NCBI GenBank assembly: GCA_028279745.1
Contig: JANQNC010000001.1
Coordinates: 30,001-62,000 of the forward strand
Direction of reading: 5' to 3'
Length of the DNA: 32,000 nt
DNA from: Candidatus Nanoarchaeia archaeon
Lineage (GTDB): Archaea > Nanobdellota > Nanobdellia > Woesearchaeales > JANQNC01
The translations under genes were made by a program, and so were the position numbers. Of the stretch, positions 94 through 26,923 are shown in pieces (position 1 is the stretch's first letter; each line of letters opens with the position of its first letter). The notes under the pieces were generated by a model. The model saw nothing but the letters and a program-made list of their open reading frames with translations. It was not told where the DNA came from and did not search any database.

Positions 94-435
94 ATGGAAC
101 CACTTATTGGAGAATCATTGAAAAGATTCTTGTTAAAACTGGGGAAGTTAAGAGGAGCAAAAATAACCATTAATGGCGAAGAAGAAAAAGGAGCATTCCA
201 TAATGGGGAAGCAGTGTACAGAATTATTGAAGGACAGTATGGCTTGAGAGAGGTGCCAACGAAAGACATAACTGTAGAAAAGAACTTTGGAAAACGTAAT
301 GACAAGATGAAGATTACTCTTCTGTTTGAGGAAGAGAGGAAAACACATGATGATAAAGGGAATGAAACAGGAAAACAGCAAATACAGCATAAAGTTGAGT
401 TGGAATTCCATCTGATGGAGGCACTATCATTATGA
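94..435 (+). CDS. hypothetical protein (113 aa from ATG 94)
   Basis: The ORF-track entry 73-435 begins at a TTG inside the upstream CDS. The first ATG (94) lies 1 nt after the upstream TAA. Its stop overlaps the metG start (ATGA at 432-435), so the two are probably co-translated. No motif recognised. Confidence 0.55.
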   Translation: MEPLIGESLKRFLLKLGKLRGAKITINGEEEKGAFHNGEAVYRIIEGQYGLREVPTKDITVEKNFGKRNDKMKITLLFEEERKTHDDKGNETGKQQIQHKVELEFHLMEALSL

Positions 436-9384: not shown

Positions 9385-12300
9385 ATGATATTTCTGATAG
9401 TGACAATTCCGTTCTATGTTGCAGACGTAATGGCTCTGCCAGAAGATAACTATAATTATCCAGGACATCAGATAACAAAAGTTTGGCTCTATGGAAACGA
9501 TGAAATCAATGGTGCATTAAGAGAATCGTCAGAGACGATAAAAGTAAGAGTAGAGATTAATGTAGCAGACGTTTTACCACACCAAGTTTTATTTAACAAT
9601 GTAGAACAGTTTAACAATTGCTCAACACAATTTGGATTAAGTTACTGTACATATGAAGCACCGCACCCAAGCGTGATAGGTGTACAACCGTTTTCAGTGA
9701 GGTACAGTTCAGACATCGTAACAGGAAACTATTACATAGATAATACTGCACCGGCAGTCAATAATATTGCAGCAACACCTGATAGTGTGGGAGTGGGAAA
9801 TGTAACATTAAGCTATCAAGCACATGACTACTACCTATCAACAGATTTCTCAGGATGTTCAGGAATAAGTGAGTTACAGATAATAGAAGAAGGAACACTA
9901 AGGGAGACAATAAATGTCAACACAACAGACTGTGTTGTTACAGACACAATGGCTTATGATCCTGTGGGGATTACAGGTGAAAGAAGAAATTCAACAATCT
10001 GCATGAAAGCAATAGATAACTTCGGACAAGAATCTGAAGATAGTTGTATTGAAGTTTTAGTCGATAATGCACTACCACAAATATCTGCACCTTACATAAT
10101 ACAAAACAACGTAAAAGTAGATTTCTTACAATCAGGACTACAAACATTCGACATAGCAGTTAACGACACATACGGAGATATAAACTTGATAACGATGAGT
10201 TCTATCTCATTAGACAAAGTAAACGAGACAGCAAGCTGCATCAACGGAGTTTGCAAATGGAGCTCAATAATCTATAACGTGGATAATGCAACAACAGCAT
10301 TTGATGCACAGTTTTACATAAATGATGTTTATGGAAACTCAGACGTTGTGACTACAACAATACCTGTTGTAAAAGACGACTTAGCACCGGTGATAGAATC
10401 AGTGGCATCAACATACACAGCAGAAGGGGTAAACTATTTCGGAATAAAAGATAACACAGTAATAGCAACAATAACCGAAGGAGGGTCAGGATTAAACCCA
10501 CTAAATGTTAAGGCAGACTTTGCGCCTGTAGGGGGGAGATTAGAGACTGCAGATAATTGTACAGTATCAGGATCAATAAACTACTGTGGTTGGTATGACA
10601 TAGACACAACAATAGAAGGAACATTTGGGGTTACATTTACAGCAGTAGACAATGTAGGAAATGTGGCAGTATCAAAAACAGAATCAATCGTAGTTGATAG
10701 AACCCCTCCAAGCACAGACTCATACTTTATAGGAGCAGATGGAGCACCATCAGCGCCAGAAGATAATGAAAGCTTAACAAACGCAAAAGGATTACAACTA
10801 AGTATAACATCACAAGCAGGATATGAATTCTACCAAGTAGGAGATGATTTAGAAATCTCATTTATACTGTCTGATACAGAATCTGGGATAAGTGATGTAG
10901 ACTCTAGTGTGAATCTGTCAGGCATAACCCTTGAAGGAGTTGCTTATCCGACATGCACACTGATCAGCGAAGAAGTCTACGGTGTTTATGATTGTGTGTT
11001 TACAGCAAGACAAATCTTAGGACCAAAAATTGGAGCAAAACTAAGATTCAACATATGCGACAATGCAGGAAACTGCATACCTTACATAGAAGAGATAGAC
11101 ATAAGAGAATCAGAAGCAGGAGTTGCGGATTTCTGGAGAATAGTTGTTGAAGGAAACATGCCAAACGAGATAGACAGGCAAACAACAGCACTAGTACAGC
11201 AAAGAATGTACTTCAATCTGGCACTAAGATCAAAATCATCAGGTTCAATAGAACCAATCTTTATGGAAATTACAGACTGTGGGCCACAGGCAGCACAAGC
11301 ATTCTTAGCAGATACACCATCCTTACTTGGGTACACAAGAGGAAGCACAGAGGCATGGATGAAACTAACATTAGCACAACAAAGCATAGAAGTTGATAAT
11401 CTAACATTTGAATGCAGAGCAAGCATAGTTACAAAACACGGACAAAAAATATCACAACCAGAAATTGAAGTGTTTAACGTAACTGTACCATTGTACAACA
11501 TGCCACTAGGTGAGATATCAGACAATGTACAAGAAAAAATAGACGAAGTGCAGAATGGTTGGCTAGTACAGGGAGAATGGATAGGATCATTTAATAACTT
11601 AATGCAAAGGATGAAACAGACGTGTGCGTTGATAAGCACACTATCAACAGCAGTAACAGCATATAACTCATTCGCACTTGCGTTTGGGTGGACAAGATTC
11701 ACAGGAATACTACTGCCAATACAGAAAGCGATAGAAGGCACATCAGACGCACTAACATTTGCATTTACGGGAATAGTTAAACTTGTACAGTACACTTGTG
11801 TTGTGGGTAGCTGTCAGATAATCCCAAAAATAGTTGAGCAGTTGGGATTAAAAAATACAAACGAACTGGTACAAAAAATTATTTTGACATTAATAGCGCC
11901 GAATTCAAAAGGTTCAGCACTAACCGCGATACCTGGAATGGGACAGATAAACCAACAAGACAGTCTATGGTTAAGTGTTTTCACACTATGTCTACCAGGA
12001 ATCATTTACAACTTACAGAAAGCAAGAAACATAGAATGTAAATACATACAGTGTCTAAGAGATGAAGTGCCGCAAGGTAAACCAGTCTTTATCTGTGACT
12101 CGATGAGAGGATACGAATGGTGTACATATGTAACACACCCATTCTTAGAACTAATACCATTCAAAGCATTAGCAAGCCAACTTTACCATCTGGTAGAGGA
12201 TCTGTTCAAGAATCCATTATCTTTAGGATTGGGCTTGGCTGCATTGGCGTGCTGGGCAATACCTAACTTTGAAACTAAAAAAGGGTGCCACATAACTGCA

Positions 12301-12432
12301 GGAGTACAAGCAACAATCAGCGTAGCTTACTATATCTACAACTTCAAAGACCAATGGGAGTTAGATGCAGATTATTGTGAATTGGTGTTGAATGAAACAG
12401 AAGAAGAGGATGAAGAGGAGGAAGAAGAATAA
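9385..12432 (+). CDS. giant cell-surface protein: Ig-like repeats + hydrophobic Cys-rich C-terminal region + poly-Glu tail (1015 aa)
   Basis: Hydrophobic N-terminus MIFLIVTIPFYVADVMA|LPEDN. Four or more ~105-aa repeats, many N-x-S/T sequons, hydrophobic C-terminal segments, the C-x2-GI-x2-NL-x12-CL-x12-C-x8-C module and the tail ETEEEDEEEEEE. The start is uncertain: the GAGGGGG SD-like element sits 37 nt upstream of the ATG. Confidence 0.8.
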   Translation: MIFLIVTIPFYVADVMALPEDNYNYPGHQITKVWLYGNDEINGALRESSETIKVRVEINVADVLPHQVLFNNVEQFNNCSTQFGLSYCTYEAPHPSVIGVQPFSVRYSSDIVTGNYYIDNTAPAVNNIAATPDSVGVGNVTLSYQAHDYYLSTDFSGCSGISELQIIEEGTLRETINVNTTDCVVTDTMAYDPVGITGERRNSTICMKAIDNFGQESEDSCIEVLVDNALPQISAPYIIQNNVKVDFLQSGLQTFDIAVNDTYGDINLITMSSISLDKVNETASCINGVCKWSSIIYNVDNATTAFDAQFYINDVYGNSDVVTTTIPVVKDDLAPVIESVASTYTAEGVNYFGIKDNTVIATITEGGSGLNPLNVKADFAPVGGRLETADNCTVSGSINYCGWYDIDTTIEGTFGVTFTAVDNVGNVAVSKTESIVVDRTPPSTDSYFIGADGAPSAPEDNESLTNAKGLQLSITSQAGYEFYQVGDDLEISFILSDTESGISDVDSSVNLSGITLEGVAYPTCTLISEEVYGVYDCVFTARQILGPKIGAKLRFNICDNAGNCIPYIEEIDIRESEAGVADFWRIVVEGNMPNEIDRQTTALVQQRMYFNLALRSKSSGSIEPIFMEITDCGPQAAQAFLADTPSLLGYTRGSTEAWMKLTLAQQSIEVDNLTFECRASIVTKHGQKISQPEIEVFNVTVPLYNMPLGEISDNVQEKIDEVQNGWLVQGEWIGSFNNLMQRMKQTCALISTLSTAVTAYNSFALAFGWTRFTGILLPIQKAIEGTSDALTFAFTGIVKLVQYTCVVGSCQIIPKIVEQLGLKNTNELVQKIILTLIAPNSKGSALTAIPGMGQINQQDSLWLSVFTLCLPGIIYNLQKARNIECKYIQCLRDEVPQGKPVFICDSMRGYEWCTYVTHPFLELIPFKALASQLYHLVEDLFKNPLSLGLGLAALACWAIPNFETKKGCHITAGVQATISVAYYIYNFKDQWELDADYCELVLNETEEEDEEEEEE
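9739..10710 (+). repeat. tandem Ig-like domain repeats (protein-level, ~105-aa period)
   Basis: Boundary motif D-x-[TAL]-[AP]-P at aa 119 (DNTAP), 227 (DNALP), 331 (DDLAP) and 438 (DRTPP). Each is preceded by [AI].DN.GN-type strands (AIDNFGQ, INDVYGN, AVDNVGN), with a further ICDNAGN at aa 557. Confidence 0.65.
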
Positions 12433-13100
12433 TGGCATATCAACAATATCCTCAACAACAACCTCAACCACAAAGAGGGATGCAACAATACTACAGACCA
12501 CAGTACACGCCTCAACCACAAGCACCGCCACAAGGAACACATAAACATACGTTGTTAGTTGCAATGGCAGTCTTACTTGTTGTTGTGTTAGTAGCATTAG
12601 TTTTTGTCTATGTAAATGTGGATGGAACTGAACAAGGAACAACAGAAGAAGTAACATACCCTTATTCAACAGGCGAACTTTCACCAGATGAATTAGTGGA
12701 ACCAGAATTTAAGATAAACAACTTCAAATTCGCATCATTAGTTGATGACAATTTAAACTATCAAGAAACACCTGCAACATTCAACCGAGGAGATAAGTTT
12801 TGGGTGTACTTTGAGATAAACAATCTGGCCTCAGGAGACATGAGAGGAAAATACAGAACAAGCTATGATGAATATATTGCAGTAAATGATCCAAACGGAA
12901 ATCCAGTAACTGACTTAACCGGATTTTTAGGAACAACAACAGAAAATGCTGAAGAGGGGAAGTTCTATAGTTTCCCAGTTGCACACCAGTTACCAACATC
13001 TGTTGATTATGTTCCAGGAAAATATGATCTGACAATCTTCATAGACGATGCAATAAATGAGGAAAGCGCAGCAATATCAGCAAGCTTCATACTAAAATGA
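12432..13100 (+). CDS. single-pass membrane protein: Q/P/Y-rich N-terminal tail, TM, extracellular beta domain (222 aa)
   Basis: aa 3-35 YQQYPQQQPQPQRGMQQYYRPQYTPQPQAPPQG. TM LLVAMAVLLVVVLVALVFVYV (aa 41-61) has basic residues before it and acidic residues after it (N-in). The start overlaps the upstream stop (TAATG). Confidence 0.75.
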   Translation: MAYQQYPQQQPQPQRGMQQYYRPQYTPQPQAPPQGTHKHTLLVAMAVLLVVVLVALVFVYVNVDGTEQGTTEEVTYPYSTGELSPDELVEPEFKINNFKFASLVDDNLNYQETPATFNRGDKFWVYFEINNLASGDMRGKYRTSYDEYIAVNDPNGNPVTDLTGFLGTTTENAEEGKFYSFPVAHQLPTSVDYVPGKYDLTIFIDDAINEESAAISASFILK

Positions 13101-15829
13101 AAAAGATAATCTTACTAACATTGATGGTTTTAGTAGTTGTGAGTAGTGCAATGGCATTACAAACAAAACCAGTATCTATCTCTGACGGTCAAGACACATA
13201 CAGATATGTTTATGTGAGAGACGACCCAATAGGTGCAGATGGATGGTACTTAATAGGTAAAGATAATTCGGTTAGTCCGGTAAGTGAAATAGCTGAAGAT
13301 CTAGGGGGGCATGATGATTTAGTGTCTTCTTTAGTTGACAAGAACTTTGAAGATGGAGTAATACAAATCCAAAGAAATAATCCTGGAGTTGTAATGTATA
13401 ATGATAGATTAGTTGATAATAACGCAATTGCAGCAGTACTTTGGGGAAAAGACAATCAACCAGCATCAATAAGAAGCATAACGGGAACAGGAGATACAAG
13501 AACCGCAACATCAAAAAGTTCAACAGTACAACAATCAACAATAGCTTATAATGAAGCAAATGAAAGAGGTACGTTTACAGTAACAACCGGCAGGGGGAAT
13601 GTTTACACTTATGAAGAAGATCCAAACAATAAAGGAATCTACAGATGTGCCTTTAAAGGTACGGGTGCACCTTGTGGAACTTACAAACTAAATAATAATA
13701 ACCAGTTTGAGTGTGTTGGAGGAGATTGTAGAACTGGCTCATTGAGCACCTTTAACACAGTACAAGGAGTAGATAATGCATTTGCATACGCTAAATCACA
13801 ATCAGACACAATAGTAACACAACCTGAAGAACCTGCAACAGAACCAAATTTAGATGGAGAACCTGCGGAACCTTCTACGCCATCTTCACAATCACCAACA
13901 TCATTTAACGATCCAAGAATTGAGATAAAAACTGCGGGAAACACAACATCTGTCAACATGTATTATGTAAATGCAAGAACTGGATCATTAGAAAGAGCAA
14001 AACTAGCAGGAGACTTTGAAGGATACACTATGTCAAAAGAAGTCTTTGACAAACTAGGTGTAGGAGAAGACATATCTTACGATCAGTTAGCAAACTTACT
14101 GTCAGATCCAAACATAGACATACAAAACCTAAAACCATCACAGATAACAACAGATGCATCAGGAAACATACAAATATCGAAGTTTGATGACCAAGGAAAG
14201 CCTGCAGGAACTGTAGATGTGAATGTTAATAATGGAGCTTATACCATAAAAAGCACAACCACCGAAGATGGAAAACAAGTTGAAAGAACAGTACAATACA
14301 GAACAGATGGACTAATAGAGCATGGAGGAGACATAGTAGCAGGCAATGGTAAAGCTTACACAAGAACAGGACAGTTAGCATTATACAATGATTTGGCAAT
14401 ACCTCCTGGAGGGTATGATCAAACAACACAGAACAGAATTAATGATCTAACTTCAACAGCAAATTCACTAACGTCGACAATAGACAACACGAATAAAGAG
14501 ATAGAAAATCTTGCTAAGGCAAGTGCAGATATACAACAACAGATTGCAGCTTTAGCAAATGCGCCGGGAGCTGCTGAACAGGAACAAAGGCAACAGTTAC
14601 AAAAAGATTTAGAAGATAACAAAGCAAAACAAGACGAACTAAACAAAAAGAATGACAAAGATAAAGCAGATCTTAAGAAAGCACAACAAGATCTAACACA
14701 AACACAAGAAAACGGAAAAGTAACAAGACCTATAGATCTAAGGAAGGTAAACGTAAGCAACATATTCTCAACAGGCACACAATCAGGACTTTGGGCAGCA
14801 GATGATTATTGTGAAAAGCAAGGACTGACAGGAGGATCATTAGATAATTGTATAGCAAACATAAACGACAACTACCTAAGACAGGAAGGAGGAACATTCT
14901 TCACAGGAGAGTTTGGAAGAAGTTTCAGAAGAGATCACCCAAGCCTAACAAGAGGCATAATACTAACAAGAGCTATAACCGACAAGCTAAGTGCTGGTGC
15001 GTCAGCGATGCAGGCTGGAGCAACAGCAGGAGCAAAACTGTGGAGCTTCTTCCCAGGAACAGATGAGGAGCCGTTGTGGGATGTAGGAGATACAGAATTT
15101 GGGCAATTTGCACAAAGATATCTAGATAACGATAACATAAGAGCAGAAGCATGCAGGCACTGGCTAAACCAAGGGTCAGGAGAGATTGGAGTTGTGGATC
15201 CAAGCAGACCGCACCTAAGAGGAGACATATTATTCCTAGATGATAACAGGGATACAATAGGTGCATACGTTGTAGCTGAAAGAAGCTCATTTATAGATGT
15301 GCCGGGAGAAAGAAGAAACCAGACAAAACAATACTTCTACAAAATAAACTATAAGATAAGCGCAATAAAAGGAAAGATAGAATACAATATCAACTTATGC
15401 AGCGGAGATGCAGAGGATTGTAAAAAAGGAACAGGGGTAGTGGTTGAAGGATTATTCCCAGAAGAAGTCAAACTTAAGAAAGGCGAAACAGAGGATAGAA
15501 GCGGTGCACAAACACTTACAAAATACAGCGACAGAAGTTATGGGTCAGTTTGTGTTGCTGTAAGTAAAGGATTCAAAAATTTCAGATTTACAGATTCAGA
15601 TGAAGGAGCGTTCTGCGCAAACATAGCGGAGTCATCAGGAGGAATGCAAGCATACGAGTTCAAAGATCCAAGCGATGATCCAAACGGAGCAGGGGTGTGG
15701 CCGTTCTACGCTCCTGATGAGTATGAAGACTCAACAGCAGACGATGATGAAGATGACAGTGATGATGATAGCGGGAGTGATGACTCATCAGAAGAAGATA
15801 CAAGATATCAAGATCCAGGAAGCTGGTAA
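13097..15829 (+). CDS. large secreted protein with coiled-coil stalk and poly-acidic tail (910 aa)
   Basis: Sec signal MKKIILLTLMVLVVVSSAMA|LQT. P/E-rich linker (QPEEPATEPNLDGEPAEPSTPSS). Heptad-like Q/K/E/D/L-rich region at aa ~445-545. Cys-containing C-terminal domain and the tail DEYEDSTADDDEDDSDDDSGSDDSSEED. ATGA overlap with the upstream gene. Confidence 0.8.
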   Translation: MKKIILLTLMVLVVVSSAMALQTKPVSISDGQDTYRYVYVRDDPIGADGWYLIGKDNSVSPVSEIAEDLGGHDDLVSSLVDKNFEDGVIQIQRNNPGVVMYNDRLVDNNAIAAVLWGKDNQPASIRSITGTGDTRTATSKSSTVQQSTIAYNEANERGTFTVTTGRGNVYTYEEDPNNKGIYRCAFKGTGAPCGTYKLNNNNQFECVGGDCRTGSLSTFNTVQGVDNAFAYAKSQSDTIVTQPEEPATEPNLDGEPAEPSTPSSQSPTSFNDPRIEIKTAGNTTSVNMYYVNARTGSLERAKLAGDFEGYTMSKEVFDKLGVGEDISYDQLANLLSDPNIDIQNLKPSQITTDASGNIQISKFDDQGKPAGTVDVNVNNGAYTIKSTTTEDGKQVERTVQYRTDGLIEHGGDIVAGNGKAYTRTGQLALYNDLAIPPGGYDQTTQNRINDLTSTANSLTSTIDNTNKEIENLAKASADIQQQIAALANAPGAAEQEQRQQLQKDLEDNKAKQDELNKKNDKDKADLKKAQQDLTQTQENGKVTRPIDLRKVNVSNIFSTGTQSGLWAADDYCEKQGLTGGSLDNCIANINDNYLRQEGGTFFTGEFGRSFRRDHPSLTRGIILTRAITDKLSAGASAMQAGATAGAKLWSFFPGTDEEPLWDVGDTEFGQFAQRYLDNDNIRAEACRHWLNQGSGEIGVVDPSRPHLRGDILFLDDNRDTIGAYVVAERSSFIDVPGERRNQTKQYFYKINYKISAIKGKIEYNINLCSGDAEDCKKGTGVVVEGLFPEEVKLKKGETEDRSGAQTLTKYSDRSYGSVCVAVSKGFKNFRFTDSDEGAFCANIAESSGGMQAYEFKDPSDDPNGAGVWPFYAPDEYEDSTADDDEDDSDDDSGSDDSSEEDTRYQDPGSW
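14420..14720 (+). other. predicted coiled-coil segment
   Basis: TQNRINDLTSTANSLTSTIDNTNKEIENLAKASADIQQQIAALA...QRQQLQKDLEDNKAKQDELNKKNDKDKADLKKAQQDLTQTQE. Proline is absent apart from one central AP, and the region is charged and Gln-rich. Confidence 0.6.
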
Positions 15830-15844
15830 AAAAAGAGGTAAAAA

Positions 15845-18046
15845 ATGAAAGATAAGAGGGGGCAGATAACAGTATTTATTGTAATAGGAGTAATACTAGT
15901 ATTATCACTATCAGCGATGATATTCTTCAGATCACAATCAATAGAAGAAAAAGGAGAAGAAGAGGTTGCAAGAGCAGCACAAGAAATTCCTTACAACATG
16001 CAAAGAGTAAACCAGTTTGTAAAGAACTGTGCAGAAGATGTAGCTAAAGAAGGAATAAGAGCTATAGGTGCACACGGAGGATACATAGACCCATTAGATG
16101 CAGAGCTAAGCGGAACAATAATGAGAATAGGTGAAGCTCAAACAGAATCAGACGCACTGAAAATGGGTGAGTTAGTAGTGCCTTATTGGAATCACCTAAG
16201 ATCACCAAATGAGTGTATATCAAACTGCAACTTTGACTCAAAGATGCCAAACTTATACAAGTCTGAAGGAGAGCCAAGCATAGAAGGACAGATAGACAGA
16301 TATCTACAAAGAGAACTTCCAAACTGCATAGATAACTTTACAGAATTGAGAGAGTTAGGGTTTGAAGTATTATCAGAAGGGAACATAGAATCATCAACAC
16401 TATTTAGCATAGCAGATGCAAGCATAACATTACAATACCCATTACAAGTCGCAAAAGGAGACGAACGATACGACTTAAATGAGTTCACAGTAGATGTTCC
16501 AGTAAGTGTAAAACAAGTTTATGACCTTGCAAAAGAACTAACAAAGGTAGAACAAGAAGATAACTACCTAGAAAAACATACACTAAATACGATTGCAGCA
16601 TTCTCACAAGTTAACGCAGATAAATTACCGCCAATGGCATCAACAGATTTTGACTGTGACAAAAGAGTCACATGGGTGAGAAGCGATGTAGAGGAAAACA
16701 AACTAAAACCAGTATTACTAAGTCACACATCACTATTACAACCCTTCGGAGTAAGCAACTACAGAAGTTATGATGAAATAACAGACCCAACAACAAGAGG
16801 GATACTTACACAAGCACTAATACCATTTAACGGAAGCGTGTCAGCAGGCTTTGATGTTGACTTTGACTATTTAGGATGGCCAGTATACTTACAGATAACA
16901 CCAAACACAGGAGAGATAATAGAGCCGATGACTGCAGAAGCGTCAGTGTTCGACTTCTGCGTAAACCAATACAAATTTGCATACGATTTATCATATCCTG
17001 TACTGGTAACAATAAGAGATCCACTAGCATTTGCAGGAGAAGGATATAATTTTAATTTTGCTCTGGAAACAAACATAAGAGCAAACGAAATACTAACACA
17101 AAATTCAACAATACAAGAACTAAGACAAGAATTCAACTACTATGATGATGGATTCTTATGTAACACAAACCAAAGAACAAGTGGAAACGTAACTGTAATG
17201 ATAGACGACACAAGAACAGACCTTCCAGTAGAAGGAGTAAGAGTTAAGTTCTGCGTGCCTGATGGAGACGGAGCATGCGGATTTGACTCATGTTTTATGG
17301 GGTTGACAGGTGGAGATGGAAAATTAACAACTGAGTTCCCGTCAGCAGATGGAATAGTGTTGTTCACAAAAGAAGGATACTATGACTTTGCAGGTGCTTT
17401 AGCGACAAGACCTGGAGAAGAGACAAGCTATAATGCATCAATACATCCTATAAGAGAAAAAACAGTAGATGTACAGCTATTGTTGATGAAAGAAAAGTGT
17501 AATGAAGAGATGTCTTTTGTTAGTTCAAGCAATAAAGTTGCAGAAGTAGTGGATGTTGTAGAAGAAGAAGTGACATGCATGTGGGAATTCATGCCATCAC
17601 AAACAACAACATTGGGAGATGAGGATGAAGTGATAATAAACCTAGAGCGAGTAACGCCATCATACTCAACATTCCTTTCAACAGTAAGATTAGAAAAAGG
17701 ATCGGCAGAAACAGTAAAACTGATCCCAGGAGATTATAGTGTTAATGTTATGTATCTAAATGGAGACGGCATAAGCATTCCTGAAAGGGATTTAGATTGT
17801 GATGGTTGTGGTGGCTTAGATGCTATAGAGATAGACTCTATAGTGTTAGGGGGAGCAACTCTGAATAACGAAACGGGATATTGGACATTAACACAAGAAG
17901 AGCTAGACTCAGGAAATAACGTAGTGTTTAAAGCGATAGTCGCAGACGCAACACAGATAGACAAACACGAAGACTTGATAATCTCAGGATTAGTTGAGAA
18001 CACTTCAATGAAATTCACAGAACACATAATACCAGAAATAAGATAA
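15845..18046 (+). CDS. pilin-like (class III signal peptide) modular surface protein (733 aa)
   Basis: N-terminus MKDKRG|QITVFIVIGVILVLSLSAMIFF. It shares the head domain with ORFs 3990 and 18871. A prealbumin/CarboxypepD_reg-like sandwich lies around 17183-17401 (...DGKLTTEFPSADGIVLFTKEGYYD). AGAGGT SD lies 6 nt upstream. Confidence 0.8.
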   Translation: MKDKRGQITVFIVIGVILVLSLSAMIFFRSQSIEEKGEEEVARAAQEIPYNMQRVNQFVKNCAEDVAKEGIRAIGAHGGYIDPLDAELSGTIMRIGEAQTESDALKMGELVVPYWNHLRSPNECISNCNFDSKMPNLYKSEGEPSIEGQIDRYLQRELPNCIDNFTELRELGFEVLSEGNIESSTLFSIADASITLQYPLQVAKGDERYDLNEFTVDVPVSVKQVYDLAKELTKVEQEDNYLEKHTLNTIAAFSQVNADKLPPMASTDFDCDKRVTWVRSDVEENKLKPVLLSHTSLLQPFGVSNYRSYDEITDPTTRGILTQALIPFNGSVSAGFDVDFDYLGWPVYLQITPNTGEIIEPMTAEASVFDFCVNQYKFAYDLSYPVLVTIRDPLAFAGEGYNFNFALETNIRANEILTQNSTIQELRQEFNYYDDGFLCNTNQRTSGNVTVMIDDTRTDLPVEGVRVKFCVPDGDGACGFDSCFMGLTGGDGKLTTEFPSADGIVLFTKEGYYDFAGALATRPGEETSYNASIHPIREKTVDVQLLLMKEKCNEEMSFVSSSNKVAEVVDVVEEEVTCMWEFMPSQTTTLGDEDEVIINLERVTPSYSTFLSTVRLEKGSAETVKLIPGDYSVNVMYLNGDGISIPERDLDCDGCGGLDAIEIDSIVLGGATLNNETGYWTLTQEELDSGNNVVFKAIVADATQIDKHEDLIISGLVENTSMKFTEHIIPEIR

Positions 18047-18071
18047 CTGAACATAGGTGAGGGGTGGAAGA

Positions 18072-18881
18072 ATGGCTAAACAGAAGAAAAAGACAGAGAA
18101 AAAAGGCAAGTTTATAGACTACCTGGATGAAAATATAAAGCTAGCTTTAACCTCAATAAAAGAAAGACCAAAAAAATTAATTCTTCCCTCTGTGGTCGAT
18201 ATAATATTCTATGTGTTGATAGCAATTGTTTTCATTGCATTTGGAAGTTACTTAGTCTCAATATCAGCAGGATTTCCTCTGATGCAGCCAGAACTATTGC
18301 AACCAGAACAACTAGAGCCTTATGATGACATGTTCGCATCACTAATAGTAAAAGTGTTGGTATCAGTAAGCATATTGTTTATTGTTATCAATGCATTAAC
18401 CGCAGTAGCTAAAGGAACGATATGGCAGTATGTACTAAAGAAGAAATTAGAGGTAAAAGATTATTTTAAACTGGCAGGGCTAAATGCACTAATGCTTCTT
18501 TTATTTATCTTAGTAATACTTATGCTTCCAATAAAATTCATAGACCCAACAAGCAACGCATCGTTAATAGGGTATGCGGTGTTTGTTAACCTGATGACTT
18601 TGGTGTTATTACACTTTAGCATAATAGTATACTACAAATTTGTATCACTAAAAAAATTCTTCACAGCAATAAAAGAGGGATTCTTAGTCGGGATAAAAGT
18701 ACACAGATTTATCTTCCCATACTTACTCTCTATTGTAGTCTTATTTGTTTTGGGATTAGTGACTGTTCCGCTGCAATTACTGGGAGATGTTGTTAACCTA
18801 GTAGTATCAACTATTCTACTATTGATATTTATGGCATGGTTCAGGTTTTACATTGCAGAGGTGATAAAGCGTGTCAACTAA
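18072..18881 (+). CDS. polytopic membrane protein, ~6 TM helices (269 aa from ATG 18072)
   Basis: The ORF track starts at GTG 18057. ATG 18072 is better placed behind AGGTGAGGGGTGGA. Lys-rich N-terminus (MAKQKKKTEKKGK) followed by six ~20-aa hydrophobic segments. No family recognised. Confidence 0.7.
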   Translation: MAKQKKKTEKKGKFIDYLDENIKLALTSIKERPKKLILPSVVDIIFYVLIAIVFIAFGSYLVSISAGFPLMQPELLQPEQLEPYDDMFASLIVKVLVSVSILFIVINALTAVAKGTIWQYVLKKKLEVKDYFKLAGLNALMLLLFILVILMLPIKFIDPTSNASLIGYAVFVNLMTLVLLHFSIIVYYKFVSLKKFFTAIKEGFLVGIKVHRFIFPYLLSIVVLFVLGLVTVPLQLLGDVVNLVVSTILLLIFMAWFRFYIAEVIKRVN

Positions 18882-20721
18882 ATCACAAGTGACCCAATTC
18901 ATAGCAATGGGAATCATACTTGTGATAGCAGTAGCAATATTCTTATTCGTAAAAGACCAATTTGTGGGAGCAGAAGTAGTATCAACAGAGTTCGTGCCAG
19001 TAGCAGAATACGTAAAAGAATGCGCATCACAAACAACAGACGAAGCAGTAAGACTGTTGGGGTTACAAGGAGGCTATGTATACATGCCAGACTTCATCAG
19101 GTTTGACCCATTAAGCTACGTAAACAATGCAGGCGTAACACTGCCTTACTGGTATCATAAAGGAGAAAGCAGAGCTCCAACGTTAGAGCTGATGGAAAAT
19201 GACATATCAAGATATGTAAAAGAAAACATTGAAGGATGCACACTGGGCTTTGAAGGGTTTGAGGAAGAGTTTGAGATAGAACAAACAGGCGACATAGAAG
19301 TAGAAACGCACATAAGCGATGAAGAGATAGAAATAGAACTAGTGTACCCCTTATCTTTAAAGCTAAGAGGACAAGAACAAGTTGAAGAAATCACAAAAAT
19401 AAGAACAACAAACAACATAAGATTGGGAAAAATATACTCATTAGCAAAAGACATAATGGACACAGAAAATGAACAAACATTCTTAGAAAACAATACCCTG
19501 GACATGATCGCAGTAGCAGACTTACCTTATGAAGGGTTAGAGGTGGCTTGTGGAAAAGACTGGAGCGTACAAGGACAGATAAAACCACAAGTGCAAGAGA
19601 TGGTGAAATACAATTTCCACTACTTAAATTTCAAAAACACAAAATATGAACGATCAGGAATAGACTACTTCGAATCATTCTACGAACAAGAAGTAGGAAC
19701 ATCTAACTATAAAGACATAAGAGTAAAAACAATATATGACGAAGAGTACGGTATGGAGATAGACGTATATCCCTCACACGGAGACATAACAGAAGGAATC
19801 GACTTAGGGATGCCAGACGTAATACCTTGTCTAAATGTCTATCATCACTTTTACAACATAGAATATCCTGTAGTATTCCAACTAACAGACGAAAAGAATC
19901 CAGAAGACACATATAACTTCTTCTTTGCATCGCCAGTCATAATAGACAAAAACTCAGCAAGAAGATCAAAACCAATAGAAGTAGTAGATGACAGCTTCAA
20001 TACGATAACCTCAGACGATTATTGTGCAACAGCAGAATATGAGCTAACTGTATTTGCAGTAGATAAGTTGTCAGGACAAGAGCTAGCAGATGCAAAAGTT
20101 GAATATCAATGTGTTAACTTTAACTGTAAGATGGGCGTAACAGAACAACCAACATTTGACGGAATCCCAATCGCAAACTCACTACCAAAAGCAGTAGAAA
20201 GATTCCCAGGATGTGTTAACGGATTTATAATCACAACAAAAGAAGGATATCTAGATGGGGAGCTGCAAGAAACCGCAGACGAATCAACCCACGGAGGAAG
20301 CGTGGCAGTAGAGATGACCCCTTTAAGGGATCTAGGATATTCATTCGTGATAAAAGAAGGAGACTCAACAAGACTCCCAAGAGATAATGAAGTAATATAC
20401 ATGGTTATAGAAGACAAAGAGAACGATTACAGAACCGCAATATACTACCCAACAGACTTAGAACAGTTCAATAGATTAAGCTTACCGATAAGAGACGCAG
20501 TATATGATGTTGATGCAAGAATAATAGTTGATGAAACGGTGGTTGGAGGCTTAGAGATACTAGAATGGGAAGTTACACAAGCAGATGTAGAAAGAGCAAA
20601 CTTTTTAGGATTAACACTACTATCATCAGACCCACAACCGACAACAACAGAAGACTATGTGGAACTGTACAGAAATGTAATAATGACTGAGTCAGAGAAT
20701 TATGAACCAAGACTAGAATGA
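18871..20721 (+). CDS. pilin-like (class III signal peptide) modular surface protein (616 aa)
   Basis: A GTG start overlaps the 6-TM gene by 11 nt. N-terminus MSTKS|QVTQFIAMGIILVIAVAIFLFV. Full-length paralog of ORF 15845 (head domain plus a prealbumin-like sandwich at 20038-20271 with ITTKEGYLD). Confidence 0.8.
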   Translation: MSTKSQVTQFIAMGIILVIAVAIFLFVKDQFVGAEVVSTEFVPVAEYVKECASQTTDEAVRLLGLQGGYVYMPDFIRFDPLSYVNNAGVTLPYWYHKGESRAPTLELMENDISRYVKENIEGCTLGFEGFEEEFEIEQTGDIEVETHISDEEIEIELVYPLSLKLRGQEQVEEITKIRTTNNIRLGKIYSLAKDIMDTENEQTFLENNTLDMIAVADLPYEGLEVACGKDWSVQGQIKPQVQEMVKYNFHYLNFKNTKYERSGIDYFESFYEQEVGTSNYKDIRVKTIYDEEYGMEIDVYPSHGDITEGIDLGMPDVIPCLNVYHHFYNIEYPVVFQLTDEKNPEDTYNFFFASPVIIDKNSARRSKPIEVVDDSFNTITSDDYCATAEYELTVFAVDKLSGQELADAKVEYQCVNFNCKMGVTEQPTFDGIPIANSLPKAVERFPGCVNGFIITTKEGYLDGELQETADESTHGGSVAVEMTPLRDLGYSFVIKEGDSTRLPRDNEVIYMVIEDKENDYRTAIYYPTDLEQFNRLSLPIRDAVYDVDARIIVDETVVGGLEILEWEVTQADVERANFLGLTLLSSDPQPTTTEDYVELYRNVIMTESENYEPRLE

Positions 20722-23700
20722 AATCAGAATACCTAAAACAAATAATCGCGAACTTCATAATATTGATAATACTCTTCTTGCCGCATGCACAAGCATTGTC
20801 GATATCAAATGTTAATATAGATGAGATAACAAGCAATTCTGCAAGGATTACATGGAATACAGATAACGCAAGCAACAGTATCGTAAGATATGGAGACACA
20901 CAACAGATACTGGAGTCAGAAGAAAAAACAGAAAGTGTAGTTAATCATTCTGTGACCATCTCTGGATTGAGTAAGGACACAAAATATTATTACAGCGTAA
21001 GATCTGGAGAAATATTTGATAACAATGCAGGAAGCCTGTATACTTTCAGAACATCAGAAGAAGAAATTGTTTCTGAGGATGTTAGCGAAAATGTTAGTGT
21101 CAATGAAACAACAACAGACAATGTAACTTATGTATATGAGGGAACACCTGCAATATCACTAGAAACAATACCTGAATTTACAAGAGAAAGAGACTTCCTG
21201 ATAAAAGGAACAACAAATCCAAATGTTGTATTAAGGTTTTACATCAACGACCACAAAATACCCGAACAGATAGCAGGAACAGAAAGATTTAGCGTGAAAT
21301 CGGGGGTGGATGGCAAATTTAACGCAACAATAAGACTACTATCTGGGTTTTATAACAGCACTTTGGGTCTGAATATCATAAAAGTAGAAGCCACAACAGC
21401 AGATTACTTCAGAAATTATGCATACCAAACAATAGTATATGATGCAGTACCTCCAAGACTTACAGTTAACACAATACCTTTAACTTCAAACCAAGGAAGC
21501 ATAACTGTAAAAGGATCAACAAACGAGGCAACCAAGATAGAGATTGTTGTAAACAATGCAACGCAGTCAACAGTTGAAACAGGAGAAAATAATATCTTTG
21601 AAACAACAGCAACACTATCAACAGGAATAAACCAACTAGAAGTAATAGCAATAGACAAAGCAAACCATACTGCAGTACACAGACAGACAGTAACGCTAGA
21701 CAACACACCACCTTCAATCGTGTTTGAAGAACTTGACGAAACATACCATTTCACAATTGCCACAATAAAAGGAAACACCTCTGAAGGTAATGTAAAAATA
21801 AAAGTAACAAACACAGGATCAGCAAGAATAGATTATGGAGATCCTTCTGGAGTGAGTAGAGTAAGAGCCACATACAATACCACAAACGTAACGACAATAA
21901 GATACGGAAGACAAGAAAACGTAACGGTGGGAGCAGACATAGATGTGTTAGGAAGCATTATTGGATACGAGAAGGAGACAACTTCTGGTGAAAATGGAGC
22001 GTTTACAATAAGAGTTGGTTTAATCAACGGAACAAACAATTTACTCTTTGAGCTAGAAGATGCTGCGGGAAATAAAGCAATAGTGGAGCAAACTCTACAG
22101 ATGGAAGCATCTACGGGATTGTGGAAGATAGGAAGAATAACCACTTTACCAAATGAAGTTTACACAGATAATCTAGGGAATGGAAATGTAGATATTGGAT
22201 TGACGTATGACTTATTTTATCTAGGCTCACAAGCAGAAGATCTAAACTCATTAAGGATAGCAGCAACACTAGATGGAAGCAGATTGAATAATGAATTATT
22301 TAGAGTATCCGACAAACCATACGTATACTGGAACCCAGACCAAAACAAAGCTGTTGTGTACCAAGAGATACAGATGATAAAGTATACTGGCAATCCACAA
22401 GAACTGCCAGACCAAGCAGACTTTGGAATGCAAAACAGGATAACATACAGAATAGGAAGAGAAGCAGAATATGATGAAAAATTATTTTATGATTCAGGAG
22501 TATCCGTTGAGAAACCGCTGAAGTACAGCAGGTTCTTAACACCAGAAATGATCAATAAAAGCCTAGAAAGACTAAACAAAACAATAGCAATACTAGAAAA
22601 AGCATTAGAGATAGCAGAGATAGGAACATATGTATCATTAGGAGCATGTCTAGCGATGACAGTCTACACATATGTGGCAGGTGCAGGTGATAGTCCATTG
22701 CCAAGTGGAGGGCAATTAGAAAAACTATTCTTAGCATGTGATAGACTATTATGTCCAACGGTTCCACCAAAATGTACAGACACAACATTCTCAGATGATG
22801 AATACAAAGGAAATGGGGTGTATGAAAAACAACTTATGGAAGGGAATGAAGTTGTAGGCACAGTAGTTGTACAACACTCAGTCAATCAACCACAAGGATG
22901 TCCACAAGCACCACCAAACTACGCTTATGTAAAAGTAACCACGACAGGATCAGCAGATACACAACTATTTGGACAACAGTTCCCAGGAGCAAATAATAGT
23001 CCAAGCTGGTATCAAACAACACCAATAAGACTACAACAAGGAACAGTAACATCAATCAACAGCAACTGCTTCTATACAGATGTAAGGAATCAGTCAGCAT
23101 TTGAGCCACAACTAGCAAAAGCAGGATGCTACACGCCCGAAAACCCATTCTATGACAACACAAAATGTCTATGGAACTTCAAAAAAGGCAATAATCCAAC
23201 AATGACAGACCTAAATCCTTATGATGACATAATCACATCAGTAAGATGTGGATGTGTAACAGGAATAAGAGGAAATTTAGAAAACATAATAGGAATACTG
23301 GAAGGAATCAGAGGATGTTTACAACAAGCACAAATCGGAGAAGTCCGAGGAGGGTATTGTGAAAGATTAGTTGCACAATTCGCATGCGATTGGATATCTT
23401 GGTTGGTAAAACAAGTAGTCAATGCAGATTGGCAAGGAATAATAAAATCAAAAGCATCATCAGAATACATAGGAAACGTACAACAAAGAATAGGTGAAGT
23501 AAACAGTAATCTACAAGCAAGATATGGTGCAATAGCAGCAAGCAGAGTTGGATTATCAGCAGATCAGCTATTCAACAAAGCATGTATAGCTGCAATCACT
23601 GGTGATTGGACAGACTTACAGAACTTATTAAGAGAGTCAACAAGAATCCCAGTCAAACCAGTAATAGGACCAATGCTTCCAGAATCAAGAGTAACAGCAT

Positions 23701-25280
23701 ATAATCCATTCACAGGAACAATCTCAATTAATTATCTATTGACAATAGGTGTGATGTCGGGAGGACAAGAAGTTAGTGGAAAGGTAGAGATATGGTGCGA
23801 TCCAAACTACCCAACACCAGACGGAATGCCAGTAATGTGTCCTGACAGACGAATAAAGTTAGGAGATAGAGGAGTTTATGTGCCAAGAGATGGGGCAGTA
23901 TCAGAAAACTGGGCATACCAAACAGACGATATACCTTACTGGGGCAATGTAGCGATAATGACCCTTGACTACCAAGTTGGAGGAGAGCAGAAACATGAAG
24001 AAAAAGTAGAACCGATCGTAAGAAAAGGAGGGTTGATAGGACAGTGCCATTGGCAAATCTTCCCACCAGTAATCGTATGTGAATCAATAGTTCCAGGAGC
24101 AGAAGCATTACTAGAAGCAGAACAGATAAGAAAGTCACCAGACGTAAGAACATACTACCCTGGAAACGTGTTAGGGGTTAGGATAGATGCAAGAAGAGTT
24201 GGAGCTATCACTAATCGTACTAACGATCTAGAAAAAGTTGCAGTAGTCTATGAAATGACAATACCTGGAACAGGACAAGATGGACAGGCTCGAACTGTTG
24301 ATAATAAAAATAACTTAAATGCATACAAACCATTCGCATCACTAAAAGGAAAAGTTGACGATACGGTATTTGTATCATTACATGAGTTCCCATCAGAAGC
24401 ACAAGTACAGTATGAAACAAAACAAATACTTGCAAGAAGGATAGCATATCCTTCACGATTGATCGAGAAAGATGAAGAGATTATTGTAAGAGCGTTTACA
24501 ACAGGAACACAAACAACTGCACAAACGCCAAGAAATGTATTGAGAGTGTTGACTGATGGACTGAATGATAACAAGTGGACAGAAGATGGTGTGGCTCTAA
24601 GGTATAGAGCAGATGCAAATGTGACTTTAGGAAACATAACCCTTGTAGAGATAGAAGCAGATGCAGAACAGACCCAATCATTAACCATAGAGATAGAAGC
24701 GGATGGAGTTAGAACTCCTGTACAGGTAGGTTTTGCAGCAGGAGAATCAAAAACAGTTACAGAATATCCCGCAAGCTCAAATTATAAATTAGCGGTTACT
24801 TTATGGGAAGACACAGACAACAATAACGCAATAGATCCATCACAAGATAAACTAGTGTTGTACAGAGGATATAACCAATCAGAACGATTCACATTTGGAT
24901 TTAATCCAGAACCTGCATGCGGAATAACTCCTCGGGTTGAGATATTAAAACCTAGAAATGATGAACTATTCTGTAAAGGTGAGTTAGAACTTGCATACTG
25001 GGATGATTGTAACCAGATAGATCAGGTTGGGTTATTCTATGACAAAGCAAACGAGACAAATAAGATACAGTTGCCATCACCAGCAAGATCCGAAGCAGGC
25101 TACAGACAGTATTTAGATGTTGATCTATCAGGCTTAGGTTTTGAGAACAATCAAGAAGTAGAGTTAATTGTGAGAGTAGAGGATAATAGGAACAAAGTAG
25201 CAACTAATAAACAGACTATCAGCTTTAGCAGTAATAGATGTGTTAGTGCGGGTGGAAGTGTAGACACTAGTGAAGAATAA
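20718..25280 (+). CDS. giant cell-surface protein: FN3 + Ig-like repeats + Cys-rich core (1520 aa)
   Basis: Signal MKSEYLKQIIANFIILIILFLPHAQA|LS, an FN3 domain and three Ig-like repeats. It has the same [FL]W[RK]I...PNE region, helical/hydrophobic segment and Cys-spaced module as ORF 9385. Sequon-rich. ATGA overlap with the upstream gene. Confidence 0.85.
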   Translation: MKSEYLKQIIANFIILIILFLPHAQALSISNVNIDEITSNSARITWNTDNASNSIVRYGDTQQILESEEKTESVVNHSVTISGLSKDTKYYYSVRSGEIFDNNAGSLYTFRTSEEEIVSEDVSENVSVNETTTDNVTYVYEGTPAISLETIPEFTRERDFLIKGTTNPNVVLRFYINDHKIPEQIAGTERFSVKSGVDGKFNATIRLLSGFYNSTLGLNIIKVEATTADYFRNYAYQTIVYDAVPPRLTVNTIPLTSNQGSITVKGSTNEATKIEIVVNNATQSTVETGENNIFETTATLSTGINQLEVIAIDKANHTAVHRQTVTLDNTPPSIVFEELDETYHFTIATIKGNTSEGNVKIKVTNTGSARIDYGDPSGVSRVRATYNTTNVTTIRYGRQENVTVGADIDVLGSIIGYEKETTSGENGAFTIRVGLINGTNNLLFELEDAAGNKAIVEQTLQMEASTGLWKIGRITTLPNEVYTDNLGNGNVDIGLTYDLFYLGSQAEDLNSLRIAATLDGSRLNNELFRVSDKPYVYWNPDQNKAVVYQEIQMIKYTGNPQELPDQADFGMQNRITYRIGREAEYDEKLFYDSGVSVEKPLKYSRFLTPEMINKSLERLNKTIAILEKALEIAEIGTYVSLGACLAMTVYTYVAGAGDSPLPSGGQLEKLFLACDRLLCPTVPPKCTDTTFSDDEYKGNGVYEKQLMEGNEVVGTVVVQHSVNQPQGCPQAPPNYAYVKVTTTGSADTQLFGQQFPGANNSPSWYQTTPIRLQQGTVTSINSNCFYTDVRNQSAFEPQLAKAGCYTPENPFYDNTKCLWNFKKGNNPTMTDLNPYDDIITSVRCGCVTGIRGNLENIIGILEGIRGCLQQAQIGEVRGGYCERLVAQFACDWISWLVKQVVNADWQGIIKSKASSEYIGNVQQRIGEVNSNLQARYGAIAASRVGLSADQLFNKACIAAITGDWTDLQNLLRESTRIPVKPVIGPMLPESRVTAYNPFTGTISINYLLTIGVMSGGQEVSGKVEIWCDPNYPTPDGMPVMCPDRRIKLGDRGVYVPRDGAVSENWAYQTDDIPYWGNVAIMTLDYQVGGEQKHEEKVEPIVRKGGLIGQCHWQIFPPVIVCESIVPGAEALLEAEQIRKSPDVRTYYPGNVLGVRIDARRVGAITNRTNDLEKVAVVYEMTIPGTGQDGQARTVDNKNNLNAYKPFASLKGKVDDTVFVSLHEFPSEAQVQYETKQILARRIAYPSRLIEKDEEIIVRAFTTGTQTTAQTPRNVLRVLTDGLNDNKWTEDGVALRYRADANVTLGNITLVEIEADAEQTQSLTIEIEADGVRTPVQVGFAAGESKTVTEYPASSNYKLAVTLWEDTDNNNAIDPSQDKLVLYRGYNQSERFTFGFNPEPACGITPRVEILKPRNDELFCKGELELAYWDDCNQIDQVGLFYDKANETNKIQLPSPARSEAGYRQYLDVDLSGLGFENNQEVELIVRVEDNRNKVATNKQTISFSSNRCVSAGGSVDTSEE
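20799..21053 (+). other. fibronectin type III-like domain
   Basis: ISNVNIDEITSNSARITWNTDNASNSIVRYG...HSVTISGLSKDTKYYYSVRS...YTFRT is the classic FN3 pattern (ITW.T, V.YG, H.V.L.GL...T.YYY.V.S). Confidence 0.8.
21144..22097 (+). repeat. three tandem Ig-like repeats (protein-level)
   Basis: The repeat starts align: TPAISLETIPEFTRERDFLIKGTTNPNVVLRFYIN / PPRLTVNTIPLTSNQGSITVKGSTNEATKIEIVVN / PPSIVFEELDETYHFTIATIKGNTSEGNVKIKVTN. D..PP boundaries at aa 242 and 328. Confidence 0.65.
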
Positions 25281-26284: not shown

Positions 26285-26923
26285 TTATTTCCCAAAAGTT
26301 CTGCTTAAGAAAATTCCGAAGTCAAATGTTGGGTTGAGTTCGTTATCAAATGTCATGTTTGCTGATAACCCTCCCATGTAACTATTTTTGCCTATCCCGA
26401 CTCGGTTGTTTGATGTAATGAAATTAAGTCCTTCTTTGCCAAAGTTTACGAAGTCTTCTGAGGCTGCTGCGATATACATGTTGTTAGGGAAAAGTTTAAC
26501 ATATGATAATATGCCAAGAACTTCACAGTCAATATCTTTGCCAACTTTTGCAGTTGATAAGATATAAGCAGAAGCGCCTCCTTTACTTTTAAATAAGCTT
26601 AGACCTGCTCTTTGAACTATGCCCATTCCTGGTGCTGCTTGTGTCTCAGAGACTGCACTAATGCCCTTTCCAATATTGTATGAGATGTCTGCAAAGAAAA
26701 AAGTGTTTACGTTGTTTTCATAATCTGTAGTGATTGTGTTTCGACTCATGTAACTTAGATTCTTTGAGAAATTCCCTGTTATCTCTGTTTCAAGTCCAGA
26801 ACTGTTGTGTCCTGCTCTGGCTCTTACTGTGGCATCGTCTGCATATAGAGGGTTAGCTAAAACTGCCAAAGTAGTTAGAAATGTTACTCCTTTTTTTATT
26901 TTTGATTTTATGGCTTGGTACAT
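26285..26923 (-). CDS. secreted beta-rich protein, paralog of 8563-9126 (212 aa)
   Basis: Signal MYQAIKSKIKKGVTFLTTLAVLANPLYA|DDA. About 10 alternating-pattern segments, ending ...NPTFDFGIFLSRTFGK. Only 9 nt separate it from the upstream 351-aa gene. Confidence 0.6.
   Translation of the reverse strand: MYQAIKSKIKKGVTFLTTLAVLANPLYADDATVRARAGHNSSGLETEITGNFSKNLSYMSRNTITTDYENNVNTFFFADISYNIGKGISAVSETQAAPGMGIVQRAGLSLFKSKGGASAYILSTAKVGKDIDCEVLGILSYVKLFPNNMYIAAASEDFVNFGKEGLNFITSNNRVGIGKNSYMGGLSANMTFDNELNPTFDFGIFLSRTFGK

Follow-up and report, generated by a model that had tools for sequence, protein, structure and literature searches.

Large proteins with prepilin-like N-termini beside giant secreted partners in Woesearchaeota: candidate surface anchors rather than filament-forming pilins

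What role should be assigned to three large archaeal proteins that start like prepilins? The question is raised by a 32,000-nucleotide stretch of the Candidatus Nanoarchaeia archaeon assembly GCA_028279745.1 (contig JANQNC010000001.1, positions 30,001 to 62,000), referred to below as the window, with coordinates counted from its first letter. The window is AT-rich (GC content ~37%) and encodes, among others, an archaeal-type methionyl-tRNA synthetase (MetRS) and LonB protease. The three open reading frames (ORFs) in question are located at 15845..18046 (733 amino acids, aa), 18871..20721 (616 aa, GTG start) and 3990..5282 (430 aa), all on the plus strand, and are termed here A1, A2 and A3, correspondingly. 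A first-pass annotation considered their products to be modular pilins, i.e. pilin stems with grafted adhesion modules, carrying class III (prepilin-like) signal peptides and lacking pilus machinery in cis. Our analysis supports the signal peptide part of this proposal and argues against the pilin part. The N-terminus is likely to be a genuine class III signal peptide carried by surface proteins that are not pilins, with cleavage being predicted, and we see about an even chance that the A proteins serve, after prepilin processing, as anchors or adaptors in an assembly of several proteins at the cell surface or for host contact, and not as filament-forming pilins.

The three ORFs were found as annotated, with N-termini reading MKDKRG↓QITVFIVIG in A1, MSTKS↓QVTQFIAMG in A2 and MKRG↓QITVFIVLG in A3 (the arrow marks the putative cleavage site, followed by position +1); the leader of A1 is encoded at 15845-15862 and is followed by the +1 Gln and the hydrophobic helix. 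The GTG start of A2 is credible, given a GGTGAT Shine-Dalgarno-like site 5 nt before it and orthologs starting with MKKRG↓QITIF. Only one strongly hydrophobic segment is seen in each, directly after the motif (residues 8-28). Their paralogy was confirmed by BLASTP (E-values from 4e-13 to 2e-21): A1 and A2 align over ~540 residues with E=2e-21, and A3 matches A1 (E=4e-13) and A2 (E=7e-17), both over the first ~215-260 residues. As proposed in the first-pass annotation, the motif V..[YF][IV][EK][NE]C-x8-[IV]R.[LIV][GA].[QH]GG[HY], the PY[YW] motif and a second Cys are identically spaced in the alignment of all three, whereas the further motif [IV]Y.LAK[ED] matches only two of them, A3 reading LYNAAKE. 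When the first 260 residues of 25 members are aligned, four positions are invariant, namely Q7 (putatively +1), C62, G79 and C161. The reported likeness of the 5' ends of the A3 and A1 genes at the DNA level is real (42/60 nt) and is accounted for by identical amino acids and codon bias; recent gene conversion between these ends was rejected, since the same codon is used at only 7 of the 12 identical residues.

The A proteins are not peculiar to this genome. We recovered 47 full-length A1 homologs, all from metagenome-assembled genomes, the existing source names of which point to Woesearchaeota, Nanoarchaeota or Nanoarchaeia. A profile of the N-terminal domain was searched against a library of 1.84 billion representatives of 50% identity clusters; at E<=1e-3 it matched 9,157 of them, and at E<=1e-10 still 7,003, these profile matches carrying no taxonomy. 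Furthermore, scanning of one genome per GTDB species revealed at least 328 loci confirmed by tblastn; 80 of these at least 328 loci were kept, and all 80 derive from Woesearchaeota/Nanoarchaeia-type (DPANN) assemblies. The three ORFs belong, therefore, to one large unannotated family, every recovered locus of which is from Woesearchaeota/Nanoarchaeia. Both the family and its operon, described below, appear to be undescribed in the literature, as far as it could be searched. It should be added that many GTDB records with this cluster (L005, L009, L011, L014 and others; L-numbers denote loci) are titled 'uncultured Methanosarcinales archaeon'; these titles are probably mislabelled automated names and not evidence for the family in Methanosarcinales.

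Conservation of the A proteins is highest at their very beginning. The search pattern demanded only [KR][GAS] and, behind it, an uncharged hydrophobic stretch, position +1 being left free, and among the 81 family members found, 80 have Gln at +1. Position -1 is occupied by Gly (48), Ser (17) or Ala (16) and position -2 by Arg (41) or Lys (40), and the window proteins read KRG, KS and RG at this place. The leader before the motif varies from 4 to 40 residues, while the motif itself may be written as K-[KR]-[GAS]↓Q-[IV]-[TS]-[IV]-F-I-I-[IV]-G, or, across relatives, as K-[KR]-[GAS]↓Q-x-[TS]-x-F-x-x-x-G, with Thr or Ser at +3 in 90%, Phe at +5 in 97% and Gly at +9 in 96% of members. Mean pairwise identity amounts to 58% for +1 to +13, falls to 23% for +14 to +22 and is 23% in the linker and 31% in the head domain; past ~+22 conservation collapses into a linker rich in Glu, Lys and Pro, with indels. 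The start of the helix is hence the most constrained part of the whole protein, as would be expected of a prepilin-type signal and not of a generic anchor.

Both hallmarks of archaeal class III proteins are present in the family: a basic leader with Lys or Arg plus a small residue, and a hydrophobic stretch with a conserved +1 position. The DUF361 pilins have the motif QxSxExxxL, and the same positions, +1, +3, +5 and +9, are conserved in the A family, in which Ser is replaced by Thr or Ser, Glu by Phe and Leu by Gly. In Methanococcus maripaludis, substrates of the prepilin peptidase EppA have leaders of 5-13 residues ending with Gly, a Gln at +1 that is possibly needed for processing and a Glu at +5, and pilins of Sulfolobus and Haloferax are devoid of the +5 Glu (PMC3875500). 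Moreover, class III signal peptides have been reported on non-pilin surface proteins as well (bioRxiv 10.64898/2026.04.22.720090). Comparison with relatives and with the pilins of the same lineage, described next, makes the class III reading of the A-family N-terminus well supported, and the first-pass annotation was apparently right on this point.

With regard to machinery, T2SSE ATPase, T2SSF platform and A24 peptidase domains are indeed absent from all large ORFs of the window. The earlier statement that no machinery is found in cis is nonetheless not general. In the closely related loci L028, L032, L037, L044 and L047, a type IV filament locus is divergently oriented and located only 1-2 genes from the cluster of MetRS, A1 and B (B being a giant secreted protein, see below); in L041, only the first gene of such a locus, coding for the coiled-coil protein, falls within the sequence. 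Besides the gene for this coiled-coil protein, the filament locus carries those for one T2SSE ATPase (Pfam E=1e-39) and a pair of T2SSF platform proteins (E=1e-10 and 4e-12), along with genes for five small pilin-like proteins, whose N-termini read KKKA↓QAAMEFLMTYGW (i.e. KKKA↓QAAMEF), RKA↓QASIEV, KKA↓QTWSLD, KKKA↓YFFTLD and KKG↓IFFTF. Bona fide pilins of related Woesearchaeota thus share the -2/-1/+1 signature of the A family, and the lineage possesses both pilus machinery and pilins with an A-family-like cleavage signature. Two platform genes are a hallmark of the system-1 (Epd-like) machinery, which has been reported in DPANN (bioRxiv 10.64898/2026.04.22.720090), and archaeal pilin genes are commonly located outside machinery operons (PMC4858521). 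Relatives of the ATPase are very numerous, with 7,884 matches at E<=1e-40; of the 120 matches listed, those bearing names were mostly from Woesearchaeota or Nanoarchaeota. A complete-looking filament locus of the system-1 type, without peptidase and followed by genes for a methyltransferase and a form III-like RuBisCO, was delineated in L085 (6393-14491); L086 and the five loci named above provide further instances of it.

A candidate peptidase was sought nearby. In the 85 loci, for which ORFs were called and clustered, the membrane proteins examined within 10 kb on either side included no A24 peptidase, and the flanking polytopic proteins considered for this role turned out to be SpoIIM, M50, DUF1189, DUF6159 and carotenoid synthase proteins. 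Likewise, neither the polytopic 274-aa protein of the operon nor the f9 membrane protein could be seen as a diverged T2SSF platform, as the hhalign probability was <1%.

As to the pilin itself, an uninterrupted alpha-1 helix in pilins rests with its C-terminal half against a beta sheet, and nothing of the kind was observed here. An AlphaFold2 model of A1, calculated with the family alignment, had a mean pLDDT (predicted local distance difference test) of 85.5. It comprises an N-terminal helix (residues 4-43), the second half of which is of low confidence, as is the variable, indel-rich linker (residues ~29-49), then a head (residues 50-260), a beta-rich middle and C-terminal beta-sandwich domains. 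The head is an alpha+beta domain of ~210 aa. The invariant Cys62 and Cys161 are situated in its two long helices (50-76 and 146-169); a hairpin containing the PYW motif, a meander of four strands and two other helices are also part of it. A model of the head only (pLDDT 87.7) was compared by Foldseek with the Protein Data Bank (PDB): the best match had E=0.02, and no pilin, pseudopilin or archaellin was among the top 50; comparison with viral structures gave no significant match either. Pfam scans over 36 A-family members returned no meaningful family, NCBIfam was likewise empty, and PDB sequence searches with the A-family profile, as well as with B and G (another secreted protein of the operon), found nothing. 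The absence of a PDB match and the nature of the linker suggest that the head is not a recognisable pilin domain and is tethered to the helix rather than fused with it.

The 'pilin stem' of the first-pass annotation is accordingly replaced by a poorly conserved linker followed by a head that matches no pilin, no other solved fold and no Pfam family. Its adhesion-type modules fared better, being a reasonable description of the C-terminal part of A1, where beta-sandwich domains of the CnaB/transthyretin-like kind are predicted; in the C-terminal region of A3 only weak, sub-threshold Ig-like Pfam matches were obtained. We consider it very unlikely that the A proteins are true modular pilins that polymerise into, or cap, a type IV pilus and expose these modules as adhesins. 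Such a reading would find room for the class III-like motif, the beta-sandwich modules, the two-platform filament loci of the lineage and their position next to the cluster in one subclade. It would also tolerate the loss of Glu at +5, which is typically missing in tip pseudopilins such as GspK. Furthermore, large minor pilins binding a secreted partner are known, as in the case of CofB and CofJ (PMC6048534). It is, however, at odds with the missing pilin-like globular domain and with the helix-to-head segment that varies in length and sequence, and no pilin-like ORF of at least 50 aa accompanies the operon in the 85 loci.

Small pilin genes hidden in the operon were also searched for. The recurrent small ORFs proved to be a ribbon-helix-helix-like protein, its antisense artefact and PIN-like proteins. 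The first of them, a highly conserved protein of 54-60 aa (MSIQIRITVSKEIN..LGKKKSMLARELMEQK), is encoded directly upstream of A1 in L003 (9834-10004) and 12 other loci and is absent from the window; by eye, it resembles a ribbon-helix-helix regulator and may control the operon. The proteins of ~165 aa that start with M..LLD(T/S)NIYG, PIN-like by eye, occur in 1-3 copies between B and X, a further secreted protein, in L014, L016, L024, L038, L080 and L083.

The canonical gene order across the 85 loci is MetRS, A1 (~720 aa), B (~1,050 aa), X (600-1,200 aa, variable), a polytopic transmembrane (TM) protein (~270 aa), A2 (~635 aa) and G (>1,500 aa), with A3 (250-430 aa) located nearby, ahead of a large protein that varies. 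Of the 85 loci, 77 contain B, 44 have MetRS adjoining the cluster and 29 have the TM protein between X and A2. Directly downstream of the A genes lie particular partners: 64 pairs consist of A1 and B, G accompanies A2 in 17 of 17, and about 10 pairs join A3 with a variable partner; in most pairs, the two genes share a 4-nt overlap of the ATGA type. An A gene is hence usually translationally coupled to a giant Sec-secreted partner, and this pairing suggests that each A protein may anchor or present the partner encoded next to it. Origin of the cluster from a mobile element or virus was rejected in view of the stable chromosomal synteny with MetRS, and no connection was found with the hypervariable Ig module of Thermococcales.

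In the window, the conserved operon spans ~16 kb and is rearranged to the order B, 222-aa protein, X, A1, TM protein, A2 and G, with A3 and its partner placed between MetRS and B. All these genes are on the plus strand, and those from 9385 to 25280 are tightly packed, with stops and starts overlapping or nearly abutting. MetRS (432..2582) serves as a synteny anchor and is not a functional part of the system. The A3 gene overlaps by 4 nt with that of its partner (5279..7372), a secreted protein of 697 aa with a Sec-type signal peptide and without Pfam matches. B (9385..12432; 1015 aa) is secreted and Cys-rich (27 Cys), shows weak Ig-like Pfam matches and closes with a C-terminal region that is hydrophobic and Cys-rich, and an acidic tail. 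Next comes, with its start and the B stop overlapping, the gene for a single-pass membrane protein (12432..13100; 222 aa), which has an N-terminus rich in Gln and Pro, one TM segment and a C-terminal domain, and the stop of which overlaps in turn the start of X. The secreted X protein (13097..15829; 910 aa) begins with a Sec signal peptide, has a coiled coil in the middle and Cys in its C-terminal part, and ends with an acidic tail; the protein at this place of the operon varies between genomes. The TM protein (18057..18881; 274 aa), with about 6 hydrophobic segments and no Pfam match, separates A1 from A2, and the A2 stop overlaps by 4 nt the start of G (20718..25280; 1520 aa), a secreted, Cys-rich protein (22 Cys) with FN3-like and glucodextranase-B-like domains at the N-terminus. 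The A proteins, the TM protein, B and X yielded no informative matches in Pfam and NCBIfam scans of the operon.

In both B and G of the window, the N-terminal Sec-type signal peptide is the only strong hydrophobic segment, and there is no strong membrane anchor. The B-family hidden Markov model (HMM) weakly matches G (E=6e-10 in a small database), the Cys-rich C-terminal region included, and B and G are therefore probably distant paralogs, with the module of an A protein and its partner having been duplicated. It should also be added that the signal peptides of B and of many G proteins (L001-L084) end with (I/L)PFY(T/V)(T/A)(S/D)V(Y/F)A, a motif far better conserved than the mature proteins and encoded in the window within 9385-9435 (B) and 20718-20810 (G). 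The window B ORF begins directly in this motif (MIFLIVTIPFYVADVMA) and has no basic n-region; an in-frame ATT at ~9355, just 3' of the Shine-Dalgarno-like site GAGGGGGA, would add NYIKLKSLF to B, matching its orthologs. At the X position, proteins of several genomes have a class III-like N-terminus of their own, ..KG↓[IL]VSL plus a hydrophobic stretch, which is unlike the A-family motif (L015 7377-12245, L018 16468-18930, L020 7865-11080, L045 15826-18357 and L052 14029-17508); they differ from the window X with its Sec signal peptide.

The place of the A3 partner is highly variable, being occupied elsewhere by proteins from 436 to 1738 aa. Three of nine have a C-terminal SLT lytic transglycosylase domain (Pfam E from 7e-12 to 5e-15; L003 7005-8396, L018 6662-8212 and L017 143-2227), and the 697-aa protein of the window is without it. 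Such a domain is odd for an archaeon without murein and suggests an action on bacterial cell walls; that murein hydrolases occur in this variable slot hints at bacteria as the cells interacted with.

The same gene content might be viewed as a core envelope similar to an S-layer, with B, X and G forming the outer canopy and the A proteins serving as membrane stalks in the manner of SlaA and SlaB, the filament machinery contributing at most the removal of the signal peptide. The cluster is indeed widespread in the lineage and fixed in position beside a housekeeping gene, its giant partners are rich in Cys, and domains of the Ig/FN3 type are recognised by Pfam above threshold in G, and only weakly in B. 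The best PDB match of the full-length A1 model by Foldseek was, furthermore, SlaB (8qox_B, E=4e-6), followed by Gram-positive pilins, CnaB and transthyretin-like beta-sandwich domains. All these matches are generic and of low TM-score (0.12/0.19 for SlaB), and the SlaB match rests on generic beta-sandwich domains. SlaB of Sulfolobales resembles the A proteins in being a beta-sandwich membrane-anchored stalk encoded beside a large secreted canopy protein. It is, however, anchored by a C-terminal helix, has a coiled-coil stalk and serves a single canopy partner, whereas the A family has an N-terminal prepilin-like anchor and three partner types, making up three anchor/partner pairs with extra proteins instead of one pair. 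The variable A3-partner slot, sometimes with a murein hydrolase, also fits host interaction better than a lattice. S-layers are usually built from one or two proteins (PMC5744192), and not seven or more as here. An S-layer-like role appears, on balance, quite unlikely.

The reading of the A proteins as processed anchors or adaptors would work as follows. A prepilin peptidase of the lineage, of the EppA/PibD kind, would cut the A N-terminus before the conserved Gln, and the same enzyme would process the +1 Gln pilins of the system-1 filament locus in related genomes. The exposed Gln may then cyclise, as it does in methanococcal pilins. The mature helix would hold the A protein in the membrane, similarly to the sugar-binding proteins of Sulfolobus, or in a short stalk resembling a type IV filament, at its base or its tip, while the membrane-proximal head and the beta-sandwich stalk would bind and display the cognate partner, i.e. 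B, G, or the variable enzyme or adhesin.

Several observations weigh against this reading. The window contains neither prepilin peptidase nor filament ATPase or platform genes, and adjacency to a pilus locus is limited to one closely related subclade and may represent a single event. Ser at -1, present in A2 and in ~19% of the family, is outside the classical set of Gly and Ala, and A2 would fail a FlaFind-style pattern. The Glu at +5 of co-occurring pilins is replaced by Phe in the A proteins. Isolated A N-termini matched none of the Pfam (PF04021 Class_IIIsignal, PF07790) and NCBIfam models of archaeal pilin N-termini, even at E<=10, this failure being weak evidence, since in L028 the bona fide pilin encoded in the type IV filament locus is missed by Pfam as well. 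Finally, the physical interaction of A proteins and partners is deduced solely from gene order; in the window, A1 is not followed by B, which lies upstream of it, and some B orthologs have 4-5 hydrophobic segments and may anchor themselves.

Part of these points could be explained if the A proteins were uncleaved N-terminal signal anchors of type II, inserted by Sec/YidC, whose Q-x-T-x-F-x-x-x-G face packs against a membrane component of the operon, for instance the 274-aa protein. This possibility, to which we assign a low but appreciable probability, agrees with the missing peptidase and filament machinery in the window, with the frequency of Ser at -1 and lack of Glu at +5, with the flexible linker and non-pilin head that follow the helix, and with the conserved polytopic protein encoded in the same operon. 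It leaves unexplained, however, why a near-invariant Gln stands right after a small residue and two basic ones, why the leader is free in length while the motif is fixed, and why the signature is identical to that of the lineage pilins and of EppA substrates (PMC3875500).

The prepilin-processed anchor has, moreover, counterparts among known systems. Similarly to the class III proteins processed by EppA/PibD, such as DUF361-type pilins of Methanococcus and the sugar-binding proteins of the Sulfolobus bindosome, the A proteins have a short basic leader ending with a small residue and ~20 hydrophobic residues after the site, the +1 Gln being shared with EppA substrates, and their genes are located away from the assembly machinery. 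A further feature in common with the bindosome is that the helix tethers a large globular domain which is not that of a pilin. They differ from the EppA/PibD proteins, with their QxSxExxxL, in Phe for Glu at +5, Gly for Leu at +9 and the permitted Ser at -1, in matching no Pfam or NCBIfam model, in the new head and beta-sandwich stalk, and in having no ABC transporter nearby. Another parallel is offered by CofB-CofJ of enterotoxigenic Escherichia coli (ETEC), TcpB-TcpF of Vibrio cholerae and minor pilins with PilY1, where a large prepilin-type protein is likewise encoded beside a Sec-secreted protein, thought to be bound or presented by it, and where there are several paralogous prepilin-like proteins per system. 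These bacterial minor pilins keep the pilin fold and sit in the pilus operon, whereas in the A family no pilin fold was detected, the machinery is elsewhere and the partners reach 1,500 aa; the likeness is a functional analogy only, with no homology of sequence or fold.

A bolder version of the anchor proposal may be put forward tentatively, its probability being low: the operon would specify the core of a hitherto undescribed, DPANN-specific apparatus for host contact. The three ancient paralogs, processed by the pilus peptidase, would bundle through their Q-x-T-x-F-x-x-x-G helices into a pseudopilus-like base displaying the giant Cys-rich proteins B, X and G and, in some lineages, murein hydrolases with which the wall of the host cell is breached.

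A few other genes of the window surround the operon. Two small secreted proteins without Pfam matches are encoded on the minus strand on either side of it, at 8563-9126 and 26285-26923; they are alike only in their N-terminal signal region, MY[KQ][SA]IKSK... (BLASTP E=0.024). Their neighbourhood further includes genes for a TPR protein (25295-26134) and, at 7369-8469, for a protein of 366 aa in which SYKAC resembles a lipobox.

Woesearchaeota and their DPANN relatives are abundant and uncultured archaea, presumed to live in attachment to other cells, and next to nothing is known of the proteins with which they build their surface and contact their hosts. The family described here is large, conserved in position and unannotated, and its signal peptide ties it to the type IV filament system, one of the few recognisable surface systems of DPANN. 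Should the A proteins be plain uncleaved anchors instead, the conserved operon would still mark a core envelope module of the lineage. If the anchor-partner model is true, the three anchors, their giant partners and the variable slot would become targets for metaproteomics, cryo-electron tomography (cryo-ET) and structure prediction, and the known uses of class III signal peptides would widen beyond pilins, archaellins and solute-binding proteins. If the host-contact apparatus exists, it would represent a new use of the type IV filament toolkit and provide a molecular handle on how Woesearchaeota attach to, and feed on, their hosts.

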